Shown: positions 27,638 to 29,131 of the stretch, piece by piece | How the letters are laid out: each line of letters opens with the position of its first letter | Numbering within the stretch: position 1 is the first letter of the stretch | Sequence record: OR204652.1 | DNA: 40,444 bases | Origin: Escherichia phage pO111 | Strand: one strand, 5' to 3' | Position numbers and translations under genes: made by a program | Notes under the pieces: generated by a model | The model's input: only the letters and a program-made list of their open reading frames with translations | What the model was told of the DNA's origin: nothing | Database searches by the model: none

Positions 27638-28871
27638 GCGCTCGGCCCTTATCAGGGTTCTTAAGGTGACAAATTATGACCAACACCACACCAGTTGACT
27701 TAGCGAACCCTTTTAGCTTGGTCATCAGGTTGTCAATCATCTTGCGCTCATCGGATTCACCAGAAGCGGACACTACGATTGAGATGTGGTCAAGGATAAT
27801 TACGTCGCAACCTAAGCCTGAGCGCATATAGGCCAGCTTAGCGAGAAGCCTATCTGTCTCAGCCTCAGCGAATGAGTCATATAGATGGAACGTATCGTTG
27901 CCGAACAGTTCATCGAACCATTGGTCGAACTTACCGTTCTCAATAATCTCTCTCTTTAGTGAGTCTGATTGTCTCAGTCGGACACGGTTGTGGAGGCCTA
28001 TAAGGTCCTCAGCGGTCTCCTCAACGGACTCCTCAAGCATCGCCAAGCCTACCTTCTTGCCCATCGCTGTGCCCCATTGGAGAGCTTGTTGACGGACAAA
28101 CGTGGACTTACCCATACCGGAACCGGAAGTGACCATAATGACTTCACCACCACGGGCACCAAGTGTCTTATCATTGATACCTGTGCAGCCGCTGAAAAGT
28201 AGACCTACTGATTCCTCGGACGATAGGTGTTCACGGATTCGTTCACGTAACGAAAGAGCCGATACCACACCATCAGGAATCCACGGGCCAGCGTTCCAGA
28301 CTTGCTCCATGATTTCACGGTCGTGACCATTTAGGTGACACTCGTTGGCATCCTTACACGGGAGAACTGCAACTCGTACCTTACCAGCGGGTAGAACCTG
28401 TGCGGCCTCTTCGACTGCCTTGCGTCCCGCTTCGTCCATGTCGAACATCAAGATAATCTGTTCGAACTGGTCAAAGTATTCGTAGTTGGCAGCGCATGTC
28501 TTCTTAGCGGCAGAGGCACCGTGACCCAACGACACTACGGGATACTTACAGTCTTGAAGTTCCATCACGGTAAGCATGTCGATTTCACCTTCTGTGACAA
28601 CAATCTTCTTACCGCCATTCCACAAGTGCTTCCCGAACAGGGCATCACTCTTGTGACTCCCAGTGGTCTTAAAGTTCTTATCTTTATCACGAACCTTCTG
28701 GCTCACAATGTTACCGTTCTGGTCCCGATAGTCAGCCACTTGGTACATCACACCGTCTACTTTGGCAATCCAGTAGCCAGCCTTCTGACAGGTTTCCTTA
28801 GAGATTCCTCGCGCAGTTAGCGCTGAGTAACGTCCATTGGATTCCCCGAAGTTCCACACGTTGTAGGTCAT
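27360..28871 (-). CDS. 4B: Helicase gp4B (internal in-frame start at Met64 of gp4A)
   Basis: Internal ATG at [15 protein letters not shown], as for T7 gp4B. Confidence 0.7.
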
Positions 28872-29060
28872 TGGTTTACCTCCACCGACTATACGTCTTC
28901 TTGATGATAGCTCCTGTTTGCGTTCTTCTGAGGCTGGAACTCTGTGCTCACATACAAAGCAAAATTGGTGGCCGTCAGAATACACTGAGTTACCATCAGA
29001 AGACCCACAGTTCTCGCAAGGAGCATGATAAAGGAATATGCTATCTTGTTCTAATTCCAT
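27360..29060 (-). CDS. 4: Primase-helicase gp4A
   Basis: 566 aa; helicase and primase domains near-identical to recalled T7 gp4A; N-terminal zinc-binding region (residues 1-63) divergent. Confidence 0.95.
27949..27971 (-). promoter_or_regulatory. Putative weak T7-type promoter inside gene 4 (phi4c-like)
   Basis: Reverse complement CAATCAGACTCACTAAAGAGAGA; keeps the GACTCACTAAAG core but deviates at -17..-12. Confidence 0.35.
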
Positions 29061-29107
29061 ATGGTTAATCCTTAATCAATGATGCGAACAAAGGGAAACC
29101 GTTGTGG

Positions 29108-29130
29108 TCTCCCTATAGTGAGTTCAATTA
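29108..29130 (-). promoter_or_regulatory. T7-type phage RNAP promoter (phi3.8 position) with a phi10-like leader
   Basis: Reverse complement TAATTGAACTCACTATAGGGAGACCACAACGGTTTCCC; gene 4 follows directly, with no gene 3.8. Confidence 0.8.
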
Positions 29131-29131
29131 A

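Follow-up and report, generated by a model that had tools for sequence, protein, structure and literature searches.

An HNH-free gene 4 locus in Escherichia phage pO111 and its relation to gene 3.8 and the primase zinc-finger segment of T7-like phages

The closest described counterparts of the locus considered here are free-standing endonuclease genes of phage T4. SegF with gene 56, SegG with gene 32, and MobE with nrdB undergo intronless homing, with co-conversion of flanking sequence and marker exclusion (PMC2988022). A more general pattern comes from the ICP1 vibriophages, where homing-endonuclease genes are placed at the edges of recombined segments between close lytic phages, that is, at boundaries of genetic exchange (PMC10448857); that phage family and its nucleases are different from those of the locus described below.

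Between the phi3.8 leader and gene 4A, which encodes the primase-helicase, T7 and the phiA1122 group of Yersinia pestis phages carry gene 3.8, a promoter-less HNH gene of 366 nt. The arrangement resembles that of the T4 enzymes in several respects (PMC2988022): an endonuclease ORF without its own promoter lies between two conserved genes and is served by an upstream promoter, neighboring ORFs overlap by about 10-25 bp, the ORF is present or absent among close relatives, and the adjacent essential gene contains a divergent stretch such as co-conversion and marker exclusion could leave. There are also differences. Cleavage sites, directional inheritance, and co-conversion tracts of the T4 enzymes were measured in crosses, whereas the 3.8 locus is described here by sequence comparison. 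The T4 Seg proteins are GIY-YIG enzymes, whereas gp3.8 is a small HNH_3 protein of 121 aa. Finally, Escherichia phage pO111, unlike the T4 cases, holds the recipient (empty) allele and not the element.

A recent preprint (10.1101/2025.09.07.674715) takes gp3.8 to be a homing endonuclease with catalytic residue H34, describes as viable both T7 without gp3.8 and a T7 strain without three homing endonucleases, 3.8 included, and reports a nuclease-independent effect of gp3.8 against the GAPS4 defence. The literature that we searched contained no report of gp3.8 cleavage, homing, or cleavage specificity, and no description of a link between gene 3.8 and the N-terminus of the primase. Our reading of the locus, to which we assign a probability of roughly 0.75, is that the HNH gene is present in some T7-like phages (Studiervirinae) and absent from others, a widespread polymorphism that likely reflects intronless homing, and that pO111 has the HNH-free, "empty-site" allele.

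Layout of the gene 3.5 to gene 4A region in pO111

The window is the whole 40,444-nt stretch of pO111 DNA that was analyzed (OR204652.1), and all coordinates refer to it. BLAST against T7 revealed a complete T7-like genome in reverse orientation, with 80-93% nucleotide identity across most genes. Positions 1..173 and 40272..40444 form a direct terminal repeat (about 173 bp) with 86% identity to that of T7, which marks the stretch as a full-length genome. Among deposited genomes, the nearest belong to Teseptimavirus (PHB19, HZ2R8, EG1, and UFV01, for example), with 91-95% identity over the locus and none identical to it. For the 3' third of the tail-fibre gene (4349..5152, minus strand; T7 35453-36345), BLAST found nothing similar in T7, and the receptor-binding part of gp17 is thus probably different. 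The genes of the locus lie on the minus strand, and its features are as follows.

29132..29587, minus: gene 3.5 (lysozyme/amidase), upstream neighbor and left homologous flank, 86-93% nucleotide identity to T7 (ORF list, T7 annotation, identity profile)
29108..29130, minus: putative phi3.8-type T7 RNA polymerase promoter, TAATTGAACTCACTATAGGGAGA, with +1 at 29113, beginning 2 nt past the gene 3.5 stop (alignment to T7 phi3.8, annotated at T7 11180)
29061..29113, minus: gene 4A leader, 53 nt, the 5' part (to 29082) common to T7 (three-way alignment of pO111, T7, and T3)
29081..29082, minus: left junction, or empty site, at the point where the shared TTGTTCGCAT is followed directly in T7 by the ribosome-binding site and ORF of 3.8
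27360..29060, minus: gene 4A, primase-helicase of 566 aa, ATG at 29060 (ORF, Pfam, and PDB matches)
28884..29060, minus: replaced tract, codons 1-59 (zinc-binding domain and most of the linker), HNH-free allele class Y27/F35
28950..29018, minus: Cys4 zinc ribbon (C15, C18, C34, C37; invariant alignment columns; Pfam PF08273 at residues 11-38)
28869..28883, minus: gene 4B ribosome-binding site GGAGGT (28883..28878) and start M64 (28871..28869), with the right junction directly upstream

An earlier note on this DNA had described a phi3.8-like promoter that abuts gene 4 with no intervening gene 3.8, and this was borne out: the predicted promoter runs from 29130 to 29108, its +1 lies 53 nt upstream of the ATG at 29060, and 3.8 is missing. 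By alignment, the candidate promoter equals T7 phi3.8 at 22 of 23 positions (-17 to +6), with a single base difference, and it agrees at 20 of 23 positions with the T7 promoter consensus. Homology to T7 spans the leader as far as TTGTTCGCAT, which ends at 29082, and ceases there. The 3' part of the leader, 29081..29061 (CATTGATTAAGGATTAACCAT), includes a ribosome-binding site, AAGGA, and is collinear with the gene 4 leader of T3, having no T7 counterpart. Position 28871, where the region singled out by that note begins, falls on M64, and 29131, where it ends, adjoins the stop codon of gene 3.5. Folding of 29108..29055, a leader fragment that began at +6 and was without the 5' hairpin, gave no excess over shuffled sequence (z -0.97), and a search of the entire 40,444-nt stretch against Rfam at gathering threshold gave no matches.

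By both BLAST and alignment, gene 3.8 of T7 (T7 11212-11585) has no counterpart at the pO111 locus. The same note had called this gene HNH-like and overlapping the gene 4 start; T7 gp3.8 indeed matched Pfam HNH_3, a recognized nuclease motif, with an E of 3e-15, and its ORF overlaps 4A by 26 nt. A tblastn search of the entire pO111 stretch found no gp3.8 orthologue, with paralogues of 34-39% identity at two other positions and a short 33% match within an insertion in gene 5. The small overlapping ORF 4.1 of T7 likewise has no pO111 homologue (tblastn E 2). A 45-codon ORF unrelated to 4.1 lies in the same +1 frame inside the zinc-finger tract (28889..29026, minus strand) and is probably no gene.

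The protein encoded by gene 4 of pO111 appears to be a bifunctional primase-helicase of the T7 gp4 type, as judged from its predicted zinc ribbon, TOPRIM core, DnaB-like helicase, and internal start. C15, C18, C34, and C37, together with D29, G30, and H31, were invariant in all seven gp4 proteins aligned. The match to Pfam PF08273 (Zn_Ribbon_Prim) was above cut-off (E 5.8e-7), as was each of Helic-prim_T7_N, Toprim_2, and DnaB_C in the one polypeptide, and PDB entries 6n7i and 1nui were matched with E of about 1e-153. The internal start at M64, GGAGGT-N6-ATG, is identical to that of T7 and predicts a helicase-only 4B form. Gene 4 of pO111 thus appears intact, with no sign of impairment.

At least six HNH-type genes are present elsewhere in pO111. 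The two gp3.8 paralogues are HNH_3 ORFs (34-39% to T7 gp3.8) at 32531..32800 (minus), after the ligase gene, and 3443..3745 (minus), between genes 18 and 18.5, both at positions without a T7 counterpart in the BLAST map. At 20363..20755 (minus), an HNH ORF occupies the position of T7 gene 7.7 and is 47% identical to gp7.7; a further HNH ORF, 822..1136 (minus), lies near the right genome end. The DNA polymerase gene has an insertion of about 600 bp (23936..24536, minus), which falls between T7 16311 and 16312, close to the polymerase motif C codon, and matches a full-length group I intron (RF00028) at 38.4 bits, below the gathering score of 50, with an E of 3.4e-8. Inside the insertion lies an HNH-like ORF, whose similarity spans 24375..24061. 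A second block of low identity to T7 (29600..30500, minus; 51-68%, with flanking genes at 86-96%) comprises a 2.8-like HNH gene at 30436..30008 (58% aa to T7 gp2.8; Pfam HNH_3 and zf-His_Me_endon) and the adjoining gene 3, encoding endonuclease I. The HNH part of this block is missing from most relatives, and the block may be another endonuclease-linked replacement tract.

The breakpoint in gene 4 and comparison with T3

The proteins of pO111 and T7 are identical at 35 of 65 aligned columns (53.8%) over gp4 residues 1-63, versus 500 of 503 (99.4%) over residues 64-566, in line with the abrupt change that had been described from the pO111 sequence. At the nucleotide level, identity to T7 was 58.5% over codons 1-63 and 94.5% in the remainder of gene 4, with about 94-95% maintained downstream of the 4B ribosome-binding site. 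A maximum chi-square scan placed the breakpoint at 28884, with mismatches at 69 of 171 positions on its 5' side versus 83 of 1521 on its 3' side, a value reached in none of 5000 permutations. Synonymous differences changed accordingly, from a pS of 0.23 (dS 0.28) in codons 64-566 to a saturated pS of 0.70 in codons 1-60. Such saturation is beyond the reach of selection on amino acids, and the tract therefore has a history separate from that of the rest of the gene. Within the tract, dN/dS between pO111 and T7 was about 0.2 (0.415/2.0), which indicates purifying selection.

These results, along with a genus clade whose bootstrap support was 100% outside the zinc-finger segment of gene 4 and 0% within it (see below), demonstrate a recombination breakpoint between pO111 and T7, as the earlier note had supposed. 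The identity plot that it had proposed shows uneven identity to T7 across the region, so the uniform identity to one reference that the note had named as speaking against a breakpoint is absent.

The note had also implied, in its title, that the N-terminus of pO111 gp4 is the divergent one, and in this it was mistaken. Over residues 1-63, pO111 is 79% identical to T3 and T7 only 50%, while the rest of gp4 is nearly equidistant (84% for pO111 and 84.5% for T7). The dN between pO111 and T3 was 0.127 in the N-terminal part and 0.129 in the rest; between T7 and T3, the corresponding values were 0.401 and 0.125. The pO111 leader is collinear with that of T3 as far as the ATG. Like pO111, T3 (NC_003298) has no HNH gene between promoter and gene 4, and its zinc-finger segment over residues 1-42 is 88% identical to that of pO111. 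A small gene 3.7 and a T3-specific promoter distinguish T3 from pO111, and T3 lacks the 99.4% identity in the rest of gp4 that pO111 shares with T7. Conversely, pO111 shares with T7 (NC_001604) and phiA1122 the promoter, gene 3.5, and gene 4 from codon 64 on, and differs from them in having neither the 366-nt HNH ORF nor ORF 4.1, and in having a 53-nt T3-type leader and another zinc-finger allele.

The pO111 form is also frequent. A 276-bp region from the end of gene 3.5 into gene 4 was 95-98% identical in more than 130 phage records, and the spacer between the amidase gene and gene 4 was exactly 71 nt in eight other Teseptimavirus loci from IMG/VR, compared to 403 nt in the T7 group. Given these spacers and records, and the T3-like N-terminus and leader, the pO111 form is the common one and T7 the outlier. 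Textbook T7 has, on our reading, taken in an endonuclease gene together with about 60 foreign primase codons.

HNH genes and zinc-finger alleles across T7-like phages

The combination of gene 3.8 with the start of gene 4 recurs in other genera. T7 11225-11690, spanning 3.8 and the first 126 bases of 4A, was found as one contiguous match of 71-74% in the KP32-like phages of Klebsiella (Przondovirus) and of 67% in the Yersinia fPS phages (Helsettvirus), and a 366-nt HNH ORF overlapping the primase start by 26 nt is common to T7, KP32i194, fPS-9, and the Citrobacter phage SH5. The zinc-finger core of T7 (residues 1-42) is 84% identical to that of KP32i194 (rest of gp4, 76%) and 77% identical to that of fPS-9 (rest, 69%), and only 62% identical to that of pO111 (rest, 99.4%). 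The two alleles differ at consistent positions across genera, A13/I, V26-Y27/L-F, F35/Y, and H39-R40/K-W. Recoding of serine codons (AGT AGT in T7, TCT TCT in pO111) was considered as a further signature of the HNH allele and rejected as specific to T7, being missing in KP32, fPS-9, and SH5.

We then compared 80 gp4 loci from viral contigs, beyond pO111 itself. An HNH gene lay directly upstream of gene 4 in 15 of them, and 13 of these 15 had the F27/Y35 allele. Among the 65 HNH-free loci, 60 were Y27/F35, four were F/Y, and one was Y/Y. HNH presence and allele class were associated with a Fisher p of 2.5e-9, which overstates the evidence because the 80 loci are related by ancestry and hence phylogenetically non-independent. 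The four HNH-free F/Y loci (L069, L072, L074, and L078) had no HNH remnants in their spacers of 18-184 nt, which held no long ORF; linkage of the HNH gene to the allele is therefore not absolute. Loss of the endonuclease after invasion and exchange independent of an HNH gene are each compatible with these four.

The remaining two HNH-bearing loci, L019 and L020 (IMG/VR, Teseptimavirus-like, gene 4 start at about 1989), carry a different HNH gene, 30-45% identical to the KP32 HNH, and a third allele (…CGSSDAGARYSDNHFHCFSCGHY…). The rest of gp4 in L019 is about 90% identical to pO111. These two loci suggest that different endonucleases have repeatedly invaded the same site.

Real replicates of the association are provided by four within-lineage pairs: T7 (HNH) with pO111; KP32i194 (HNH) with L036, at a rest-of-gene distance of 0.07; L058 (HNH) with L028, at a rest-of-gene distance of 0.021; and SH5 (HNH) with SH4, whose flanks are about 98% identical. 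In all four, about 120-190 nt at the beginning of gene 4 have been replaced locally in the partner with the HNH gene. The left boundary of the cassette could not be placed cleanly in the KP32i194/L036 pair, which has extra indels upstream. The possible link to an endonuclease that the earlier note had raised thus gains support from a repeated association, seen in the four pairs and across the 80 loci, which is consistent with it.

Neighbor-joining bootstraps of the zinc-finger segment (162 columns) and the rest of gene 4 (1443 columns) gave conflicting trees. The zinc-finger segment groups by HNH status: HNH-free alleles from several genera clustered at 95% (0% in the rest of the gene), and the HNH-bearing KP32i194 and L058 at 100% (again 0% in the rest). 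The rest of gene 4 groups by genus, with the Teseptimavirus clade, KP32i194 with L036, and L058 with L028 each recovered at 100%, and each at 0% in the zinc-finger segment. One clade uniting every HNH-bearing zinc-finger allele was also considered and rejected, since it had 0% bootstrap support in these 162 columns and fPS-9 and SH5 were placed elsewhere; the only robust zinc-finger groups are the HNH-free one (95%) and KP32 with L058 (100%).

The HNH cassettes of T7, KP32, and fPS-9 differ mutually (74-79% aa) about as much as the rest of gp4 does between those genera. Cassette divergence thus parallels genome divergence, which an old polymorphism present in several lineages explains as well as recent transfer does; each lineage may have had both forms for a long time.

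Intronless homing and its alternatives

Features of a homing locus are found together here: an endonuclease ORF is present or absent at the same position in four pairs, it has a nuclease motif, and the flanking tract is of different ancestry. Under intronless homing, 3.8 and about 60 codons of foreign zinc-binding-domain sequence in T7 and the phiA1122 group would move as one cassette that ends just before the 4B ribosome-binding site. The enzyme gp3.8 would cut or nick HNH-free genomes within or close to the 5' end of gene 4, and repair off the HNH-bearing genome would copy the endonuclease gene and the adjacent zinc-finger codons, up to the conserved 4B start. The divergent tract of a T7-type allele may then shield the carrier from its own enzyme. 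The pO111 locus would be a natural recipient allele, having retained a leader and zinc-binding domain that align collinearly with those of T3 and of HNH-free phages in other genera, and its primase zinc ribbon would be expressed straight from the phi3.8-type promoter. Since the searched literature contains no report of cleavage or homing by gp3.8, the driving role of the endonuclease rests on association, and we infer its cleavage, the position of its target, and the immunity of the T7-type allele.

The alternative that survives best, which we nonetheless consider improbable, is generic mosaic recombination, in which the tract is one more patch and the HNH gene a passenger and not the driver. 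There are other patches of low identity between pO111 and T7, including gene 2.8 with gene 3 (51-68%) and the early region (about 80%); the parallel between cassette and genome divergence and the HNH-type allele in four HNH-free loci also fit this explanation. However, in each of four independent pairs it is the HNH-bearing partner in which the same tract, with its right end near the 4B start, was replaced, and the region's other low-identity patch likewise borders on an HNH gene. The placement of nuclease genes at exchange boundaries has, moreover, been documented (PMC10448857).

The two forms might instead reflect diversifying selection on the primase zinc-binding domain, through template recognition or escape from host defence, independently of the HNH gene. 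The zinc-binding domain of T7 gp4 contacts template DNA, and the allele positions are consistent across genera. We regard this as very unlikely, however, for the tract is under purifying selection by its dN/dS, its synonymous divergence is at the between-genus level, which is beyond point selection, and its sharp boundaries coincide with the HNH insertion.

Least probable of all, with only a slight chance of being correct, is simple loss, in which an ancestor of pO111 deleted a T7-like 3.8 and the N-terminal differences arose by ordinary divergence: 3.8 is dispensable, laboratory T7 lines delete it, and triple-endonuclease-minus T7 is viable (10.1101/2025.09.07.674715), but the laboratory strains without 3.8 retain the T7-type zinc-finger segment at 99-100% identity, the pO111 tract is synonymously saturated relative to T7 where the neighboring 1500 nt have a dS of 0.28, and in its leader and zinc-finger segment pO111 matches T3 and other genera instead of T7. 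Because the deletion lines keep the T7-type tract, such a deletion is disfavored, and the "absence" of 3.8 in pO111 most plausibly marks an empty site that was never invaded or has reverted.

Beyond intronless homing at an empty site, we tentatively consider a broader possibility, at somewhat less than even odds: that a 3.8-family HNH gene and the first ~60 or so primase codons form a single mobile cassette in at least four T7-like genera, with the zinc-finger sequence as the immunity determinant. If this were true, the zinc-binding domain of T7 would be an imported allele and the majority allele of pO111 a natural cleavage target. The paired swap that turns Y27/F35 into F27/Y35 could have recoded the target site in a compensated way, and template recognition by the primase might not be the same for both alleles.

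The pO111 locus is a case of real but ordinary phage mosaicism around a mobile nuclease gene. Elements of this kind are themselves well known; the linkage of a 3.8-type HNH gene to a primase zinc-finger allele across genera was not found in the literature searched. For pO111, the result means an intact primase-helicase gene with the upstream layout usual for its genus. T7, the reference for the biochemistry of the primase zinc-binding domain, has a minority allele tied to a selfish HNH gene, and its arrangement is not the default of the genus, which calls for caution in annotation pipelines and among phage engineers. The result offers a concrete candidate target for gp3.8, whose specificity is unreported in the literature searched, and the pairs of HNH-bearing and HNH-free phages form a natural set in which homing, marker exclusion, and the anti-defence role lately proposed for gp3.8 could be told apart.
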